Source: Clostridia bacterium (GTDB lineage Bacteria > Bacillota > Clostridia > UBA1212 > DUPL01). Taken from it: a stretch of 64,000 nucleotides of DNA. The notes beneath the pieces are model-generated. The model was not told the DNA's origin, did no database searches, and worked only from the letters and a program-made list of their open reading frames with translations. Below, piece after piece: positions 1 to 7,970 of this stretch. A program made the translations under genes and the position numbers. The first letter of the stretch is position 1. Every line of letters begins with the position of its first letter. The DNA is taken from the NCBI GenBank assembly GCA_050951325.1, contig JBMNIW010000002.1:1-64000 (forward strand), read 5' to 3'.

Positions 1-1
1 C

Positions 2-148
2 AAGAAATCATATGAAGAAGATGAAATTTATAATGTTTTACTGGAGATTAGAAAAGAGTATGGTCATGACCATGAAAATAGTGAATATGATGAGGATTAC
101 AAGGAACTAATAGATTATCTGATAAGTAGAGGGGATAATGGGATATAG
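2..148 (+). CDS. 3' end of an acidic hypothetical protein running in from outside the window
   Basis: Open frame from base 2 (KKSYEEDEIYNVLLEIRKEY...RGDNGI) to TAG at 146-148. Confidence 0.5.
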   Translation, partial: KKSYEEDEIYNVLLEIRKEYGHDHENSEYDEDYKELIDYLISRGDNGI

Positions 149-182
149 AAAAACAATTCAAAAAATAATGCTGCCATAAAAT

Positions 183-211
183 TTGACAGTATGAGTAGTT
201 TGAAATATCAT
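183..211 (+). promoter_or_regulatory. sigma-A-like promoter
   Basis: TTGACA (183-188), 17 nt, TATCAT (206-211). Confidence 0.55.
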
Positions 212-244
212 TATAAGTGACAATAAAATAATATTAAATCAAAG

Positions 245-300
245 AAAACTAACATAGCAAATTTGCCCGGAAAAGAGGGTTTTGCCGTGTTAGTTTTTTT
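245..300 (+). terminator. long hairpin with U-tract (intrinsic terminator or attenuator) upstream of ORF 328
   Basis: AAAACTAACATAGCAAA ... TTTGCCGTGTTAGTTTT inverted repeat followed by T-run. Confidence 0.65.
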
Positions 301-327
301 GTTTATTTAGAAAGGAGAGATGTTTTT

Positions 328-681
328 ATGAGTAGGGTTAATGTTTATGAAAGTGAATTTTGTAATGAGATTGTTGCCAGAGTAAAATATAATGAAAAAT
401 TAGATTACTGGAATGGACGCAACTGGGGTAATGGAGGATTAGGAATGCATAAAGGCATTACTAAGTTAAAGGACGGCAGGTTTGTTATTATTATAGGTTC
501 TCAAATGCAAGGCTCAAAAGACTATGCCTATATAGTAAGTAAAGAAGAGGCATTACAGGAAGTTTTAGAGTCAGGCAATGTGGAACTATTGGAGGATAAA
601 AAATTTGCTGAACTAAAAACTCTGTATGAGAAATTATGTGATTTAGAAGAAATTGATGAGGCAGAAACTACTGCAGAGTAA
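328..681 (+). CDS. hypothetical protein, phage/MGE-type (117 aa)
   Basis: Good RBS (GAAAGGAGA), own terminator; LDYWNGRNW...HKGITKLKDGRFV motif reminiscent of uncharacterised clostridial phage/plasmid proteins. Confidence 0.8.
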   Translation: MSRVNVYESEFCNEIVARVKYNEKLDYWNGRNWGNGGLGMHKGITKLKDGRFVIIIGSQMQGSKDYAYIVSKEEALQEVLESGNVELLEDKKFAELKTLYEKLCDLEEIDEAETTAE

Positions 682-707
682 TGAAAAGGTTATAAAGGGT
701 TATGTAG

Positions 708-738
708 GGAGTCGGGCTATAAGCCTAGGCTCCTTTTT
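708..738 (+). terminator. intrinsic terminator
   Basis: GGAGTCGGGCT-ATA-AGCCTAGGCTCC-TTTTT. Confidence 0.75.
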
Positions 739-815
739 AAATTACAACTACTATCGTAGATTACACTAATTTATATTTGTAATACTTAGTTTACAAGGAG
801 ATTGGGCTAAAAATT

Positions 816-940
816 TTTTCAACATAATATAAATTATGCTGCAGAAGGTCCTGACTTTAGTTGCAAAAAGCGGTAACATCAATATATGAATTCAACATAA
901 TTTACAGGAATTTAGAAACTTGATTGGCAACATAATTTAT
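816..940 (+). other. TnpI-type internal resolution site (IR1-IR2 core plus DR1, DR2)
   Basis: CAACATAAT (820-828)-ATAA-ATTATGCTG (833-841) inverted pair, then direct repeats CAACATAATTTA at 893-904 and 928-939 abutting the recombinase RBS; same layout and near-identical motif as the Tn4430 IRS (CAACACAAT). Confidence 0.85.
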
Positions 941-952
941 GGAGGTGAAATT

Positions 953-1783
953 TTGTTAGAAGAATTTAGAGAGTACTTAACATTGCAAGGAAAAAGCGAG
1001 AATACTATCAATAGTTATTATTTGCATATGAAAGGTTACCACCAATGGTATTTGGTATCCTTTGGCAGAGAATGTTCGGTGCTATACCGGGAAAACATCT
1101 TAGATTATATCAGTTATCTTCGTAATATTAAGAAAGATACTGGTAGAACAATAAATTGCAAGATTAGTGCATTGATAAAGTATAATGAATTTTTGATTGA
1201 GAAAGGAATACAGCAAGACCAAGTAGTTTCAAAGAAAGATAATATTAATGTACAGCAGACATATGCAAACCCTTCGGATATAACTAAACAGGAAGTAGAT
1301 GCTTTTAGACAACAACTATTAGAGAATGGGCATCGAGATATTTATTGTTTGGCCACATTATTAGCATATGCAGGTTTAAGAATTAGTGAAGCACTTAATA
1401 TTCAGTTAACAGACTTCAATTTAACAGTTGGAGAGTTAAAGGTTAGGGGTAAGGGAGATAAAGACAGAGTTGTTTATTTAAATGATAAGATTATTAATAG
1501 TATAAGAGAGTTCTTAAGAGTGAGAGAAAGTGAAAGTCCATATTTATTTGCAAATAGTAATGGAAAGGTAATCCATAGATCAACAGTTAATAAGGTTTTC
1601 AATAAGTATAGCGATAAGATTACCCCTCATACATTGCGGCATTATTTTTGTACAATTGCTTTGGAGGGCGGGCTATCGGTTCATGAGGTTGCCTATTTAG
1701 CAGGGCATAGCAATATTCACATAACGCTTATATATTTGAATCCGAGTAGAGAAGCAATTAGGGGAAAAATAAATAACCTGTAA
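953..1783 (+). CDS. tnpI: TnpI-like tyrosine recombinase (resolvase)
   Basis: TTG start after GGAGGTG; catalytic R (GLRISE), K (GKGDK), HxLRH, GH, Y; segments LYRENILDYISYL, ESPYLF, ITPHTLRHYFCT, AGHSNIH closely resemble Tn4430 TnpI. Confidence 0.85.
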   Translation: MLEEFREYLTLQGKSENTINSYYLHMKGYHQWYLVSFGRECSVLYRENILDYISYLRNIKKDTGRTINCKISALIKYNEFLIEKGIQQDQVVSKKDNINVQQTYANPSDITKQEVDAFRQQLLENGHRDIYCLATLLAYAGLRISEALNIQLTDFNLTVGELKVRGKGDKDRVVYLNDKIINSIREFLRVRESESPYLFANSNGKVIHRSTVNKVFNKYSDKITPHTLRHYFCTIALEGGLSVHEVAYLAGHSNIHITLIYLNPSREAIRGKINNL

Positions 1784-1787
1784 TTAA

Positions 1788-1818
1788 AGGCTATGAAAAG
1801 ATTCATAGCCCTTTTTTT
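1788..1818 (+). terminator. intrinsic terminator
   Basis: GGCTATGAA-AAGA-TTCATAGCC-CTTTTTTT. Confidence 0.8.
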
Positions 1819-1980
1819 GATCAGATTTCAATAACGATACTTTGTCACCTAGATTATACACAATATAGTGAGATACCATATAAATTATGAACTTTAAATT
1901 GGAATAGTATATAATATTGTTAAATAATCTTTGGAATGTAATGGAATCAAATTTAGAAATAGATTTGGGAGGGTTAAATA

Positions 1981-2742
1981 ATGGAAATCATTAATGATTT
2001 TAAGTTTATTTGTGAGATTAAACCCTTGATTAATGATCGTGGGCAAATAATGGAGTATTATCCCTCCACCAAATATAATAATCGGGCAAATAAAAAACTT
2101 AACAAATATGGTAAAGGACCATTTTGTAGATTTCGAATTCCTAACATTATAAACAGCGAAGGTGTCTATATTATTAAAGTCAATAACGATATCTTGTATG
2201 TTGGGGAATGCGAAAATTTAAGTCACAGGTTTAATTTAGGTTATGGTCAAATATCGCCTAGAAACTGTTTTGTGGGAGGACAGTCAACAAATTGCAAAAT
2301 AAATTCATATATTCTACAGGAAATAAAAAATGGTTCAGAAGTATTTCTATACTTCTTTGAAACTGGAGAAAGGTTTAAAATAGAGAGCGAATTAATTAAG
2401 AAGTATAAACCGGAATGGAATTCTACTTCAGGAAAGCATGTAAATTCTGTTGGGAAAAAATCTGTGAATACAAGCCATGAAGAAGTGAAAGGCATAAATA
2501 ATATCAGTAAATATTATCCTTTGGAAAAGTTTCTAAATATACAAAATGTAAATCAGATTGAGTTAACTTTTTCTGAAGTAGAGAAAATCATAGGGGATGC
2601 ACTTCCACCTTCTGCATATAAATATCGTGCTTGGTGGGGTAATGGAGGTCATTCACAGGCAAATGCATGGCTGAACGCAGGCTGGAGAGTAGATAAAATA
2701 AAACTTAGAGACTCAATACTATTTGCAAAAAACAGTGAGTAG
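1981..2742 (+). CDS. GIY-YIG nuclease with C-terminal DUF7662-like domain
   Basis: GVYIIKVNNDILYVGECENLSHRF GIY-YIG motif, IESELIKKYKPEWN; after a low-complexity linker SKYYPLEKFL...LTFSEVEKIIG..LPPSA....WWGN...QANAWL.AGW module. Confidence 0.75.
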   Translation: MEIINDFKFICEIKPLINDRGQIMEYYPSTKYNNRANKKLNKYGKGPFCRFRIPNIINSEGVYIIKVNNDILYVGECENLSHRFNLGYGQISPRNCFVGGQSTNCKINSYILQEIKNGSEVFLYFFETGERFKIESELIKKYKPEWNSTSGKHVNSVGKKSVNTSHEEVKGINNISKYYPLEKFLNIQNVNQIELTFSEVEKIIGDALPPSAYKYRAWWGNGGHSQANAWLNAGWRVDKIKLRDSILFAKNSE

Positions 2743-2758
2743 AAAAAATTATGTTCAT

Positions 2759-2803
2759 TGTTTCATTACACACGAGTTTGTTTACAATTACAAAGTTTGC
2801 TTA
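2759..2803 (+). mobile_element. inverted (left-type) Tn7-like end: TGT plus two TnsB-type sites
   Basis: TGTTTCA-TTACACACGAGTTTGTTTAC-AA-TTACAAAGTTTGCTTA mirrors the reverse complement of the 3178-3227 end. Confidence 0.55.
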
Positions 2804-2814
2804 TCGCAATCGCC

Positions 2815-2851
2815 AACCGTCAGGGGGAAAATTCCCTTTGGCGGTTTTTTT
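2815..2851 (+). terminator. intrinsic terminator inside the inverted end
   Basis: AACCGTCAGGGG...CCCTTTGGCGGTT followed by T-run. Confidence 0.75.
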
Positions 2852-3012
2852 GTGTGTAAAAATAGAATATAGAGAATAAATAAAAATATGTAAATCCGGA
2901 CGCAGTTTTAATCCCTCGAAAGCAAGTAGAATTCAGATGTGTAGGTGGTTTCGATATTTCCTCCCGTAGGTTATACCCTGCGTATGAATACTCATTTTAT
3001 TAGTAAACCTTC

Positions 3013-3227
3013 CACGAGCAAACTTTGTCATTCTTCACTGCTCACGAGCAAACTCGCTTGTCATTTTCTCATTTTTTATATCTTTTTTTATATTTTTTAA
3101 GGTAATAAAACCCGCGAGCAAACTTTGTCACTACAAGGGAAGAAACAGCGAGAAGCCTTGCAACAACTACATTTCAACACGAGCAAACTTTGTCACTCAC
3201 GTGAGCAAACTTATTTGTAACTGGACA
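3013..3227 (-). mobile_element. Tn7/Tn5053-like transposon end with five TnsB-type binding repeats
   Basis: C(A/G)CGAGCAAACTTTGTCA at 3013-3030, 3113-3130, 3178-3195; longer variants at 3043-3063 and 3200-3220; terminal CTGGACA at 3221-3227 (reads TGTCCAGTTACAAATAAGTTTGCTCAC on - strand). Confidence 0.8.
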
Positions 3228-3251
3228 CATACATTCGAATATATGCTATTC

Positions 3252-3289
3252 AAACCGTCATTGTACTACAACTCATGGCGGTTTTTTTT
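3252..3289 (+). terminator. intrinsic terminator just outside the transposon end
   Basis: AAACCGTCAT...ATGGCGGTTT plus T-run. Confidence 0.7.
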
Positions 3290-3414
3290 ATTTCCTTTAA
3301 TAAGATACAATCGTGATAAATAATTAATGTTTGTGTAGTGGGAGGGATGCGTAGTAGGATTTGAGCTGCCGGATACATGTTACATTGTTTGCTGGCAATG
3401 AATTTTATCTTTAT

Positions 3415-5892
3415 TTATACCTTGCTGCCTGAAATTTTCTTTTTCCTTATTACAAGGAAAACCCCTCCGGCAACGGCAATCAGCAGGATTGGGATTAAAG
3501 CAAAACATATAACTTTAAGATTGTTGTCAGAGTTTATAGGATTTCCGGGTACAACCTTGTCTTCATCAATGACGGAAAAATAGTAATCCTCCCAAACAAG
3601 ACGGGTATTGGCATTTTCTGCCCTGTTAACCTTGTATCTTATTTGCAGTTCCTTGTTTGCTTCTACTATTGCGTCAAGCAAGGGGCTGTTGTCATTCCGC
3701 CAGGTATCACCGTCATTAAAACCCTGCCTGTCGGAACGGAAGGTCCACCAATGGGTTAACTGAACTCCCGCGTCTATAATAAGCTCCAAGTATTTGATGC
3801 GTCCCTCGATAAATCCAGGTGACGAAGGATCCGAGTTCCACGAAGCACCGACACATCCTGCGCATTCTCCGTTATACAGAACTTTGCCTATTCTCTTTGC
3901 CTCTTCCATCAAAATTTTATAACCGTTATTTACAGCATTATTTGTTGCGTCTTTGTAATAGAGGTCAAAATCGGATGATGAATCTATATCGTAAGTATGA
4001 GTACTTAAGACATCAACACCCTTATGCAGAAGATACAGAGCCTTAAGTCTTTCTTCAAGGGTATCAATGGTCCAGTTGGATGATAAATCACCTTCCATCA
4101 CTCCTTTAAAAAGGTTCCACTGGGCGGTTCTTAAAGCAGAATCGCCTCCCGTAACAAGTCTTTCCGGATCAATGTCATGTATCTTCTCTGTTACATCCGT
4201 ATAAAACTCACTCAGCTGCAGAAGGGAGTATGTAACTCTTCTGATTGACGCGCCAACATCCGCGTGAAGATTTCCTTCATTTAAGATTTCCCACATCAAA
4301 ATGGTTTTCCTGTCTTTGTACCTGCCTATGAATTCATCAAGATACTTGTAGAGATTCTGCCTTGATACGCTGTCTCTGTCGCTAATCAAATCATACAGGG
4401 TTTCATCGTCACTTACCCAGCCAACCTTGTCGACATATTTCTTTTTTACAAACATATTGTCAATCAGTTCAAGACAAAGAACAATCTTTATGTCATACCT
4501 GTCACACAGATCAAACAATTTGTCCATCATTTCATAGTACTTTTCCTTGTCCTCCCGGGAGTACATTATATCGTTTCTGAGATTGTTCCTGGCAAAAATA
4601 CGGATTGACTTGAAACCGAGTTCATTCAGCTGTTTAAGGGCGCTTTCCGCAGCGGCATAGGTAAACTCGGCAGTGGGATAACTGCTGTCATAGTAATAAT
4701 CCGCTGCAATCTGCATGCACAGGTCGAACTTGTTGAAGCTTATTTCGTAATAGGGTTCTCCGTTCATATAAAACTTGTTGTTGATAATCCTGAGAATGTC
4801 ATCATTCTTGTACTTCCCTGTCGTAAACGCAACCGTCTTTTCAGCCTCGTCCCACCAGATTTTGCAGTTTAACACTTCGTGAAAAAGCTGCAGAGAAGCC
4901 ATATACACACCTTTGTGCCTGATTACCGGATTATTTAATTTTACTGTTTTATTGTTTAATGTTAGGGTGCCGTTATTGATTTCCGCGCTTATTTTATCGT
5001 TTTTTATTATTATTTTGCTTTTACTTGTTTTAACATCAAACCCGGCACATTCCATCACTCTTTCCAACGGAAGGTAAAGAGTATTGTTTTTTTCAACCGG
5101 TGATTTATTCAGATTTATTTTCACAGTATTTATGTAAAGTGAAATGTTTTTATCCTTTTTTACTTTTGGCAATGTTACATCGGGTAAAGGTCCGGTTTCC
5201 TGATATGAATAGGGCTGGGGATATCTGGAACCGCTCGTCTTAAGAGTAAACTTATCAAAACATATATATGAGTCTGAGGTATTGTTGTTTACCAGGAACC
5301 TCATTCCCGTTATTCTGTAAATCGGAATAAAGAAATCGCAGGAACCGACTTCCCTGTCATTGACTGATAATGCATATTTGCTTTCCCCGCGGTTAATACT
5401 TATGGAAATATCATACACCTTGTTTTTTTCAAATTCAAAAACAGTGTTTGCATCATGATCCTTCAGGACAGCATGACCGTTCTCCGGAATAATTGAAAGA
5501 ATCGTATCGTTAGCATTGGGAATCGTCAAATGCTGCGTATATATCTGGAAAAGAAGGGGGTTGTTATAATTCTCATCAATACGAATCTGGAAACTGTAGT
5601 ATATCTCAGGCTCTTCTATAATCAGACTCCACCATCTCATATCGCAGTTTTTTATTTTTAGCGACTTCGTCCCTGAAAGGGGAGATTTTGTGAAAACTTC
5701 AATGTTGCTGTTGGCTGATATGTACGAAGCGGATGAGTTCTTTATTTTATTTACATATCCGTTTGTTATATCGCTGTCTTCGTAATTGTCAAAAACCAGT
5801 ATTGTACTGACGCCTTTTGCTTTTGGAGTTGTATAAGTCATTGTGCTCACCATTGCTATTAAAAGTATATATGATAAAATGCGTTTGTTCAT
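3415..5892 (-). CDS. membrane-anchored clan GH-A (GH5-like) glycoside hydrolase with copper-amine-oxidase N-terminal (stalk) domain
   Basis: Signal peptide from MNKRIL; stalk-domain motifs (LYLPLERVME, VYMASL, IWWDEAEKTV); GFKSIRIF, WEILNEG acid/base, LYNGE nucleophile region; C-terminal TM helix plus RKKK. Confidence 0.7.
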   Translation of the reverse strand: MNKRILSYILLIAMVSTMTYTTPKAKGVSTILVFDNYEDSDITNGYVNKIKNSSASYISANSNIEVFTKSPLSGTKSLKIKNCDMRWWSLIIEEPEIYYSFQIRIDENYNNPLLFQIYTQHLTIPNANDTILSIIPENGHAVLKDHDANTVFEFEKNKVYDISISINRGESKYALSVNDREVGSCDFFIPIYRITGMRFLVNNNTSDSYICFDKFTLKTSGSRYPQPYSYQETGPLPDVTLPKVKKDKNISLYINTVKINLNKSPVEKNNTLYLPLERVMECAGFDVKTSKSKIIIKNDKISAEINNGTLTLNNKTVKLNNPVIRHKGVYMASLQLFHEVLNCKIWWDEAEKTVAFTTGKYKNDDILRIINNKFYMNGEPYYEISFNKFDLCMQIAADYYYDSSYPTAEFTYAAAESALKQLNELGFKSIRIFARNNLRNDIMYSREDKEKYYEMMDKLFDLCDRYDIKIVLCLELIDNMFVKKKYVDKVGWVSDDETLYDLISDRDSVSRQNLYKYLDEFIGRYKDRKTILMWEILNEGNLHADVGASIRRVTYSLLQLSEFYTDVTEKIHDIDPERLVTGGDSALRTAQWNLFKGVMEGDLSSNWTIDTLEERLKALYLLHKGVDVLSTHTYDIDSSSDFDLYYKDATNNAVNNGYKILMEEAKRIGKVLYNGECAGCVGASWNSDPSSPGFIEGRIKYLELIIDAGVQLTHWWTFRSDRQGFNDGDTWRNDNSPLLDAIVEANKELQIRYKVNRAENANTRLVWEDYYFSVIDEDKVVPGNPINSDNNLKVICFALIPILLIAVAGGVFLVIRKKKISGSKV

Positions 5893-6730: not shown

Positions 6731-7660
6731 CTATAATTTGTGGTTTAAAATTGAATTTACTTGCGATTTCGATAAGAAGTAGTTCGTGAGAGGGAGATCG
6801 AATTTGATTGTAAGTTCATCTATTAACTCTGATGAAGTAGTTAAGTTGATAAACCTATTATCCACATCGGTAAGATTAAATTTTTTTATAAACTTATATA
6901 TTTCAGAAGTTGAAAATTTATTCTCCAACACCTTAAATTGTAATAATCGCTCTAAAAGAACAGCGCAATAGCAAATAAGAAAGTGTCCTTTGATTGAATC
7001 AACTTTTTGAAGAAAAACAGGCCTAGCATCTAGGTCCGACTTCATTATCTTGAACGATTCTTCTATACGCCAAAGGTTATGATATGTTTCGTAGATATCT
7101 AGATCATTCATCTTTATTTCAGATGTAACAAGAAGGTTGTATCCTGCAAGTTCCAGATCTTCGTTTATTGCATCATTGTTTATTACAGCCGCGGCTTTAT
7201 TTCCTTTTTCATCTACGAACTTAACATATTTAGCAGACTCTCCGTATTCTGCCTTCTTTGCTTGAGAATGTGTAAGAAACTTTGCTTTTTCAACCATTTT
7301 GTTTATTTCACATCTTTTTTTATATGCTAAAGATGGATTGTATGTTAAGAGTCTCTTTTCTGTAAATTCTATAGTATAGACTTTTCCTTCATATGTTACA
7401 TCATACGGAAACTTATCAATACATGTTTTATAACGAAATAAAATATTGCCGTTTTTATCTTTAACATCTTTAAAATCTCTATCAAGAAGCACCCATTTCT
7501 TCTCTTTATCCGGAAGCTTTTTTACTGCTTTTGAAAATATGTAACCATCACCATTCTTTTTTGCATACGCTATGTTGTTGGCACAGTTAAGTCCTTTATC
7601 TGCTACATGAATGGTTCTTCCTGTTATGTTATTTTGCTTTTTAAGATTGCTTATTACATC
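6731..7660 (-). pseudogene. IS1634-family transposase, 5'-truncated
   Basis: TIHVADKGLN (2nd D), GYNLLVTSE, YHNLWRIEESFKIMKSDLDARPVFL, IKGHFLICY; the first ~80 aa of the predicted ORF are the antisense of the neighbouring gene. Confidence 0.85.
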
Positions 7661-7970
7661 TGTGTTGGGCTTCGTTATTCTTGCTTTTGGAGTATTCGTA
7701 ATGTTGAGTACGGATTTTATTATGCTTCCCCAGGATGCAGCCGTTGCAGTAATTTCAAACAAGTATAAAAAGGAGTACGGTAAGATAAAGATTACTTTGG
7801 ATGTAATACTGACTACAATTGCAACTGCAAGTTCTTTTGTAATATTCAGTAGAATAATACATGTGGGCGTTGGGACCATTTTAGCTGCAATCTTCGTTGG
7901 CAAGATAATCAGCCTGCTTCAGAAGTCTGCTGGTATTAATCGTTTTATTAGCTGGGCTATTGGTGATTAA
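7661..7970 (+). pseudogene. 3' half of YczE/YitT-family membrane protein
   Basis: ILAFGV...MLPQDA, YGKIKITLD, VGVGTILAAIFVGKII; no start/RBS, abuts the transposase fragment. Confidence 0.7.

Follow-up and report, generated by a model that had tools for sequence, protein, structure and literature searches.

Structure of the unit in the window

The window analysed here, a 64,000-nucleotide stretch of DNA from a Clostridia bacterium, carries near its start a gene-less unit with sharp edges, which we call U and which we read as one end of a Tn7-like transposon inserted behind the ribosomal protein gene rpsI. The genome analysed (G000) measures 3.08 Mb; the window lies on its contig C2, and a second contig, C3, is the other one of importance for this account. 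In what follows, U denotes the two-ended unit, U2 its copy in the window, U1 its copy at C3:22059-21596, X the gene-carrying segment between U copies, and U-X-U an arrangement in which genes are flanked by two U units in direct order. The features of U2 and its immediate surroundings, in window coordinates, are as follows.

2749-2758, plus strand: conserved inner junction ..TTATGTTCAT preceding the TGT of U2 (the same ..TTGTTCA(T/G)-TGT is found elsewhere)
2759-3227, plus strand: U2, 469 bp
2759-2802, minus strand: R-type end with terminal TGTTTCAT, a long site at 2766-2783 and a short site at 2788-2802, inverted relative to the right array
2815-2852, plus strand: intrinsic terminator inside the R part, with a 14-pair stem and a T run
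3013-3033, plus strand: L site 1, short form CACGAGCAAACTTTGTCA (repeat family D1)
3043-3064, plus strand: L site 2, long form GAGCAAACT-CGC-TTGTCA (family D3)
3113-3133, plus strand: L site 3, short form (family D1)
3178-3198, plus strand: L site 4, short form (family D1)
3200-3227, plus strand: L site 5, long form, with the terminus ..GTAACTGGACA (family D3); likeness to other copies stops at ACA
3228-3232, plus strand: CATAC, the distal-side copy of the target duplication, whose partner CATAT follows the rpsI stop codon on C3
3252-3290, plus strand: terminator outside the element, with the shared TGGCGGTTTTTTT (family D4)

U2 starts with TGTTTCA at 2759 and ends with ..CTGGACA at 3227. Its left side consists of the TGT terminus, two inverted sites and the terminator, and its right side of five GAGCAAACT..TGTnA sites ending in ACA. 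The order is TGT-N4-long site-short site at the left end and long site-N-ACA at the right end, and the left part (2765-2801) matches, in the inverted sense, both the sites of the right array and the right terminus (repeats I2, I3 and I6-I8). The two ends are asymmetric, with two sites packed within 44 bp at the TGT end and five spread over 215 bp at the ACA end. A repeat search divided the five into three 21-nt short sites (3013, 3113 and 3178) and two long ones (3046 and 3203), the long form having three bases more than the short form. The repeats at 3013-3200, the CTGGACA end at 3227 and the inverted architecture from 2759 thus read as an earlier note on this DNA had described them.

The exact word GAGCAAACT occurs five times in the window, always on the plus strand (3016, 3046, 3116, 3181 and 3203), and 35 times in the whole genome when both strands are counted, but only two clusters of at least two occurrences within 400 bp exist genome-wide, namely, the window array and C3:21612-21798. 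Allowing one mismatch, the word is not enriched across the window (24 occurrences against 17.85 ± 4.16 expected, with 10 of 100 shuffles reaching 24), so the signal of the array lies in the clustering and in the longer shared site and not in the count of the 9-mer. Even when three mismatches to the 15-mer core were allowed, there was no third array in G000. Likewise, a BLAST search of C2:1-4000 against the genome returned a single non-self match, in which 2757-3227 aligns with C3:22061-21596 at 93.4% identity over 472 columns. In the alignment of U1 with U2, likeness begins at TGT and ceases at ACA on both sides; the right 340 bp differ at two places, while the left 130-135 bp or so are about 75% alike. 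In G000, the sequences on the two sides of either single U are unlike, and neither copy has a duplication of its own. As for the middle of the unit (2885-3012), an Rfam search at E <= 1 gave only a DUF805 match, which lies outside U and scores 20.9 bits against a gathering threshold of 51.1, and the fold z-score was +0.97; we therefore dropped the reading of this stretch as an RNA.

A probable 25.3-kb element behind rpsI

The partner copy U1 has a chromosomal setting, behind rplM-rpsI. It begins 5 bp after the rpsI stop codon on C3, and its ACA end lies 165 bp upstream of tnsA, the first gene of an operon tnsA-tnsB-tnsC-tnsD. The earlier note had recommended looking for tns genes, and a complete set of tnsA, tnsB, tnsC and tnsD/TniQ is thus present next to U1, beside the sole other copy of the array. 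The transposition genes are the following.

C3, beside U1: tnsA, 280 aa, PF08721/PF08722
C3, beside U1: tnsB, 693 aa, Mu-transpos_C
C3, beside U1: tnsC, 460 aa, AAA_22 (5e-20) and TniB (5e-9)
L001 1905-3183 = G000:C3:15904-17182, minus strand: tnsD, 366 aa, TnsD (1.2e-57) and TniQ (1.6e-11)

TnsB matches Tn7 TnsB (7pik) at E = 6.6e-109 over residues 8-657, which bears out the assignment to the TnsB-type transposons of the Tn7 family, and its IDAT, ADRGE and GIIE align with the DDE motifs IDAT, ADRGE and GIVE of Tn7, in positions that we take to be those of the Tn7 numbering; the triad is intact. No tnsE was recognised beside the genes next to U1.

We read window positions 2759-3227 as the distal (left-end) module of one Tn7-like transposon of about 25.3 kb at rpsI, with a probability of roughly 85%. 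The window contains positions 1-3227 of this element on the plus strand, and the remainder is C3:22059->1 on the opposite strand. Its order is rpsI, CATAT, U1, 165 bp, tnsA, tnsB, tnsC, tnsD, brxA, brxB, brxC, pglX (split), pglZ, brxL, small open reading frames (ORFs), tyrosine recombinase, GIY-YIG/DUF7662, U2, CATAC and terminator. The feature is real, and the earlier note's suggestion that 3227 ends a large element running left out of the window is borne out by the continuation into C3.

This continuation is seen in two other genomes. In G162, a comparison genome with 95% identity across the C-terminal 99 TnsB residues recovered, contig C62 is colinear over the joint, as its positions 1-4138 correspond to C3:4135-1 (97.6%) and 4138-4978 to C2:1-842 (94.3%), with no gap. 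In G048, a genome from another family of the same class, a U 93% alike lies 5 bp after its own rpsI, and the cargo includes copies of C3:14192-321 at 93-95% followed, in the same order, by a copy of window 975-1593 at 98.7%. This synteny shows that position 1 of C3 would adjoin position 1 of the window. The contig break falls within an ORF, with the N-terminal part at C3:198->1 and the C-terminal part at window 1-146, and neither contig start (C3:1 or C2:1) is repeated elsewhere in G000. Furthermore, genomes of other families share the stretch between the U copies at 93-98%, as against only 64-75% for the rpsI flank.

At the outer flanks of the element, CATAT and CATAC match at four of five positions; the prediction that CATAC would also flank the other end therefore held for the first four bases, found after the rpsI stop codon, and failed for the last. 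The same note had pointed out that the immediate flanks of the window unit share only 3 bp (CAT/CAT), which is as stated. The left flank of U2 is, however, a conserved inner junction (..TTGTTCAT-TGT) and not target DNA, and this explains the short match. As for the note's second model, in which 2759-3227 is a mini-element inserted independently, a discrete, two-ended, gene-less module does exist, and it stands alone or in tandem with 5-bp duplications in other genomes, but here it is an end piece and not a separate insertion.

Metagenomic data are informative on the same boundaries. Contigs from four public runs bridge the GIY-YIG gene into U and U into the host flank, and two contigs (X1 record 8 and X8 record 32) begin matching the window exactly at 3227, part of each lying beyond. 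One metagenome contig with the same host flank has a U that ends in CTACACA instead of CTGGACA, so the module at the G000-type site varies among samples. The genome search proposed earlier yielded one further copy of the U region (C3:22061-21596) and no empty-site allele; in order-level relatives the neighbourhood is not preserved, the homologues of the 841-aa flank gene lie elsewhere than behind rpsI, and the only metagenome contig with the host flank also bears a U end.

A family of elements with rpsI as attachment site

An exact scan with two adjacent sites as the query, in one genome per species, found 59 U loci in 46 assemblies, the record titles of which name Clostridia, Tissierellia, Peptococcia, Desulfitobacteriia, Dethiobacteria, Syntrophomonas and others. 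Loci are designated by L numbers, which stand for stretches from other assemblies, and comparison genomes by G numbers (G048, G162 and G358); some of the 59 loci are contigs already counted under G handles, so the locus sets are not independent. In 24 of the 59 loci, rpsI adjoins the TGT (R) side, with an identical orientation in all 24 and an insertion point 4-8 nt past the stop codon. A tnsA gene was found in nine loci, each time after a U (twice in tandem in L106). The ACA-TAGTAAT... joint could be read in five of these (L080, L085, L106, L108 and L110); L083 has an AAGTAG variant of the junction between ACA and the tnsA side, its tnsA match being partial, and the remaining three (L067, L071 and L113) have a deletion from ACA into tnsA. 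Even in the divergent member G358 (TnsB 77%, tnsA 74%), the L-oriented sites, the ACA and the tnsA-side joint are kept at 70% DNA identity. At the opposite end of X, the distal inner joint ..TTGTTCA(T/G)-TGT is common to the window, G162, L066, L088, L093, L096 and Tissierella pigra (L089). U-X-U was the layout of every member in which both ends could be examined. For instance, in the cultured isolate T. pigra WCA3-693-APC-4, U1 and U2 are about 98.5% alike, and ATAAT stands at either side of the whole unit.

We compared the flanking 5-mers in the 22 assemblies for which both an R junction at rpsI and one or more L junctions were available. In 10 of them, the 5-mer next to rpsI recurs just beyond an L terminus, as listed here; in JAAYFF, the pair is possibly one U split over two contigs.

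Single U: DAORXT, GTTTA; DUOX, ATTAC; DUQP, ACAAG
Pair on separate contigs or loci: JAAYEU, ATTGG; JAAYFF, AAAAT; JBMNGP, AGATC; JBMNIZ, AATTT
Pair on separate contigs or loci: JBMNJJ, ATATA; JBMNLH, ATTGG; VUNQ (T. pigra), ATAAT

Solo U copies with a perfect 5-mer duplication are known from three loci (L077, L109 and L114), and recombination between U1 and U2 could just as well give rise to such copies. Tandem arrays of the form U-5 nt-U were found in six (L072, L093, L098, L099, L106 and L112), and head-to-tail U joints with four to five letters between them are also present in contigs of public sludge and biogas runs. Two of the arrays are informative about which ends are used together. L106 reads rpsI-GTTTT, U, TATAT, U-tnsA, while L099 reads ..TTGTTCAT, U, GATAT, U, ATTGG, and the rpsI flank of the same assembly (L113) is likewise ATTGG. 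Therefore, the outermost R end pairs with the outermost L end, and older, fossil spacers are carried along. L093, moreover, has a remnant of an older U on the distal side of a whole element.

When U copies from different hosts are compared, the right part is on average 93% alike and the left part is mosaic, which points to a probable recent spread and to exchange between copies. Similar patterns exist within single elements, for which the likeness of U1 and U2 in the left and right parts is 74.6% and 98.5% in G000, 95.4% and 95.2% in JBMNIZ (with a 10-bp indel) and 78.9% and 82.9% in JAKELU; these mosaics suggest that the copies exchanged sequence at a later stage. Across four metagenome runs, each from a different study, contig depth summed over U was 20-200 times that of the flanks; as summed depth is not copy number, this is only a hint that many members of a community share U. 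There was no match to U in 72,556 plasmid records and none in phage collections. The terminator hairpin of U is kept in other copies with altered stem and loop letters.

Two further loci deserve mention. In G052 (L012 9970-10080, G052:C1), only an R-type end (TGT and two sites) and a terminator are found behind rpsI, with neither an L array nor tns genes, so that the locus looks like a remnant. In G162 (L063 179-400, G162:C32), there is a further five-site array, 68% like U and ending in CTCGACA, beside an ORF whose start looks DnaB-like by a reading of its translation.

TnsA and the mode of transposition

TnsA resembles Tn7 TnsA (1t0f/1f1z) at E = 2e-35 and has the TnsA fold domains, but it lacks the E63, D114 and K132 set of Tn7 proper, as high-confidence alignment columns place Q at E63, T at D114 and K at K132. 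These three residues reportedly constitute the active site of TnsA. Among 18 aligned TnsA homologues, the D114 column holds T in 15, S in one and D in two (L050 and L051); the E63 column, Q in 13 and E in five; and the K132 column, K in 17 and S in one. The two homologues with D, L050 and L051, are the most distant ones and retain E, D and K. The motif TTTFL(L/I)T is conserved. TnsA thus seems, as far as its alignment tells, to have been kept as a protein but not as a nuclease. TnsB relatives with 43-55% identity (L042-L049 and L052) were also seen to be accompanied by a TnsA with T or S in the D114 column, so this substitution marks a clade far wider than the family that targets rpsI; neither ends nor attachment sites came to light in the stretches of these loci that were examined.

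Given that TnsA is without two of its three catalytic residues while the DDE triad of TnsB is intact, a replicative, cointegrate-forming route is plausible, and we put the chances that transposition would be replicative (nick, join and copy) rather than cut-and-paste at about even. According to a passage of one report, an active-site D-to-A mutant of a related TnsAB gave cointegrates in 149 of 150 cases (PMC9881144), and part of another regards a lost tnsA, in combination with a resolvase, as predicting replicative transposition (PMC8649781).

The deletions mentioned above may be relevant in this connection. The ACA of U1 stands directly against tnsA, at codons 15-18 or so, in three assemblies (L067 2157, L113 3604 and L071 4789). 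These deletions are independent, start exactly at the U1 ACA and are 228-237 bp long, with all three endpoints within 9 bp. They fit intramolecular replicative events, or local insertion followed by U-U recombination. The tnsA sequence just before the endpoints (GCAAAGTATAAAAGA) is loosely like the end of rpsI (TCAAAGAGATAA), and, on this resemblance, it might be a pseudo-attachment site.

Relative to the 420-aa ORF of G162, tnsD of G000 has a +1 frameshift (one extra C near codon 58) that splits the gene; the G000 copy of the element may be immobile, or the splits in tnsD and pglX may be assembly errors. In the 165 bp upstream of tnsA, there is a promoter-like match, TTGAAA-17-TAACAT, also present in G358, which is a consensus match only; promoter scans gave counts at chance level. 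In distant TnsB relatives (at most 52% identity), rpsI was not seen in the 0.3-3.7 kb examined upstream of tnsA in 12 loci, no end was recognisable within 700 bp upstream of tnsA in seven loci, and no 9-mer occurred at least three times upstream of tnsA in six of the nine loci scanned.

In L093 (5091-7357), tnsB is interrupted by opposite-strand ORFs of 493 and 262 aa, which resemble an IS21-type pair in size. G048 has two 406-aa ORFs (L011 10578-11798 and L013 17316-18536), the first where tnsABCD is lacking and the second further on, which may be insertion-sequence copies behind a deletion.

Proposed mechanism and alternative explanations

The compared genomes display how the element is built and which genes it carries, its attachment site, the 5-bp duplications, the horizontal spread and the movement of the unit by its outermost ends; which protein binds which site we infer by analogy with Tn7. 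On that analogy, the repeated words of 19-22 bp would be TnsB binding sites, TnsD would read the conserved 3′ end of rpsI, and TnsC would connect TnsD to TnsB at the arrayed sites. TnsB would pair an R terminus with an L terminus lying further downstream and, as in Tn7, join the 3′ ends five bases apart. Pairing of the outermost R and L ends would move the whole element, while pairing of R and L within one U would yield the solo and tandem copies of other genomes. The terminator in the R part (2815-2852) could end read-through from rpsI at the edge of the element.

Several points weigh against this reading. The target duplication in G000 is imperfect (CATAT and CATAC), and 12 of the 22 assemblies have no shared 5-mer; in five of these, only an inner junction or a tandem spacer was available, in L064 the 5-mer is shifted by one base, and in the rest the letters are unlike. 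The joint between C3:1 and C2:1 rests on synteny with other genomes and not on G000 reads, and the G000 tnsD is frameshifted, as noted. The intactness of the inward-facing L array and of the inward-facing R part is left unexplained. Replicative copying of U at each insertion is opposed by the two copies of one element, which differ by 1.5-25% in parts and are no closer than U copies across genomes; furthermore, the loss of E63 and D114 is read from an alignment, and another acidic residue could substitute for them.

It is possible, although on balance improbable, that the 466-bp U is itself the true transposon, the genes of X being located beyond its ends on an X::U circle, in a cycle like that of the pseudo-compound transposons of the IS26 family. 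In those, a passenger lies between two copies of a small element in direct order, the duplication is found on the outside only, and solo copies are left behind. According to this proposal, TnsA is dead, the circle is fused into the chromosome as U-X-U when U transposes replicatively into the rpsI site, and recombination between the U copies frees the circle and leaves a solo U. Much in the family would agree with such a cycle, as the direct U copies with a duplication on the outer flanks only have the look of a cointegrate, and every member conserves the inner junctions ACA-TAGTAAT..tnsA and ..TTGTTCAT-TGT, which is what one would expect of U/X joints in a circle. The solo copies with perfect duplications (L077, L109 and L114), the older remnant distal to a whole element in L093 and a TnsA without E63 and D114 also speak for it, and it accounts for both halves of each U staying intact. 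Nevertheless, U1 and U2 of one element are often unlike (G000, JAKELU and JBMNIZ), and the fossil spacers in moving units (L106 and L099) require pairing of the outermost ends and not duplication of one U. Nor was a circular form, a plasmid or a phage copy found, contigs being unable to reveal circles or excision. Both kinds of signal could be obscured by homologous recombination involving a resident solo U.

A more far-reaching version of this idea, which we regard as speculative and rather unlikely, is that the TnsA of a widespread Tn7-like clade of anaerobic Bacillota can no longer cut and that the ends have become one two-ended cassette, U, with the body of the element entering behind rpsI from a circle as the cointegrate U-X-U and leaving through U-U recombination. 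If true, this would be a version of an integrative element run by a DDE transposase, similar to an IS26 translocatable unit but with the site-specific targeting of Tn7.

It is very unlikely that the two U copies are unrelated insertions resembling miniature inverted-repeat transposable elements (MITEs), that tnsABCD is a dead remnant without ends and that no 25-kb unit exists. U is gene-less and two-ended and stands solo or in tandem elsewhere, tnsD of G000 is frameshifted, and G000 has no further end-like array, all of which would suit such a history. The stretch between the U copies, however, is common to genomes of other families at 93-98% where the rpsI flank is only 64-75% alike, the outer 5-mers of whole units are identical in T. 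pigra (ATAAT), JBMNIZ (AATTT), JBMNGP (AGATC), JBMNJJ (ATATA) and JBMNLH (ATTGG), and the flanks of each single U in G000 mismatch.

Less probable still is that the U copies are attL and attR of an integrative element run by the tyrosine recombinase encoded at 920-1783, with the Tn7 genes as passengers. Direct repeats do flank an island, the recombinase gene lies about 1 kb from U2, and part of one report names rpsI as a known target gene of streptococcal integrative and conjugative elements (PMC13693407). Against this, the repeats are 466 bp long and have TGT/ACA termini, inverted sites and 5-bp duplications, and they occur solo and in tandems spaced by 5 bp. The recombinase, moreover, is unmatched in the 22.4 kb of the G162 element examined (L060 and L062), frameshifted in L093 and shortened in G048.

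Finally, the several direct repeats of about 20 bp with irregular spacing could recall plasmid iterons or operator sites beside a replication gene, which the earlier note had named as a refuting outcome, but this is practically dismissed by the missing rep gene or iteron context in the first 9 kb of the window and beside the C3 copy, the chromosomal setting behind rplM-rpsI, the lack of a match in the plasmid records, and the inverted partner sites with TGT/ACA termini.

Relation to known systems

The element belongs to the Tn7-like group, as judged from its genes, its ends, the duplication and its insertion at a specific site. As in Tn7 of E. coli, with its attTn7 behind glmS, there is a tnsA-tnsB-tnsC-tnsD operon beside one end, the termini are TGT...ACA, and several TnsB-type sites of about 20 bp stand close together at the end near the genes and farther apart at the opposite one; also shared are the 5-bp target duplication and insertion in a single orientation, a few bases past a conserved gene's stop codon. 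In contrast to Tn7, the target is rpsI and not glmS, TnsA has Q and T at the positions of E63 and D114, each end is a full module of R and L with the L-type array facing tnsA and the R-type end facing the distal array, a terminator is built into the R part, and no tnsE was recognised.

Elements of the Tn5053/Tn402 type and CRISPR-associated transposons of type V-K are TnsA-less and replicative. Many of them have a tyrosine recombinase, as is present here, but tnsA is present and conserved in sequence in our element, the target selector is of the TnsD type, the recombinase is not seen in all members, and no res site was identified. The likeness to the IS26 family lies in the direct copies of a small element around a passenger, the duplication of the outer flanks, the solo copies and, by analogy, the cointegrate route that these would imply. 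Here, however, the small element is gene-less and the transposition genes are in the passenger, and both the enzyme family and the choice of target differ. U also resembles MITEs in being about 466 bp long, gene-less and provided with both ends, in occurring solo with 5-bp duplications and in forming tandem arrays, but it is site-specific (behind rpsI) and, in whole elements, makes up both terminal modules and is not a separate parasite.

As far as the searched literature shows, a Tn7-like family with rpsI as its attachment site is new. We found no description of rpsI as a Tn7-like attachment site in the literature searched, although supplements outside the search may list it; in the main text of Benler 2021, the words "ribosomal protein" occur zero times. 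The same literature held no natural clade with these TnsA substitutions, only mutant and fusion cases, with the reservation that supplements may bear on this as well, and no description of terminal modules each holding both end types. A conserved TnsA without the catalytic Asp and Glu and the double-ended terminal modules bear on the workings of Tn7-type transposition. The family's spread is wide and recent: its members stand in 46 assemblies from several classes of Bacillota, and their end modules are over 90% alike. Provided that the elements are active, the natural double-ended cassette of 466 bp, together with the targeting of rpsI, could be used as a compact tool for site-specific insertion in clostridia and their relatives.

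Cargo and neighbouring features

Between the transposition genes and the distal end, the element carries a complete type 1 bacteriophage exclusion (BREX) set (L123, G000:C3, 397-13531, minus strand) comprising BrxA, BrxB, BrxC, PglX, PglZ and BrxL. In G000, pglX is split into ORFs of 901 and 278 aa with 190 bp between them, while G048 has a single ORF of 1184 aa. In the window, the cargo ends with two genes.

920-1783, plus strand: tyrosine recombinase, Pfam Phage_integrase (2e-29) with a SAM-like N domain; cargo or accessory
1981-2742, plus strand: GIY-YIG/DUF7662 protein, the last gene before U2; Pfam DUF7662 (4e-16), GIY-YIG (0.0038, below the cut-off)

We had also considered the tyrosine recombinase as a core resolvase of the family. 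Copies 95-99% identical lie near U2 in L088 and L093, that of L093 being frameshifted and that of G048 cut short, and the absence of any match in the 22.4 kb of the G162 element leaves this role unsupported. The short JBMNIZ element, which had made the recombinase look "core", is a deletion form disrupted by an insertion sequence.

Outside the element, the terminator at 3252-3290 is presumably the displaced native terminator of rpsI. It has both stem arms in common with the terminator inside U2 (AACCGTCA ... TGGCGGTTTTTTT), a likeness that could be due to a captured host terminator, an older decayed U or chance. Farther along the window (6731-7903, minus strand) is a 390-aa ORF with a weak match to DDE_Tnp_1 (E = 0.0016, below the cut-off). 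As for the GIY-YIG/DUF7662 protein, a 100% identical copy is present in L093, and a passage on Tsy elements describes these as also combining a tyrosine recombinase with a GIY-YIG nuclease (Faure et al. 2023; PMC10293859).

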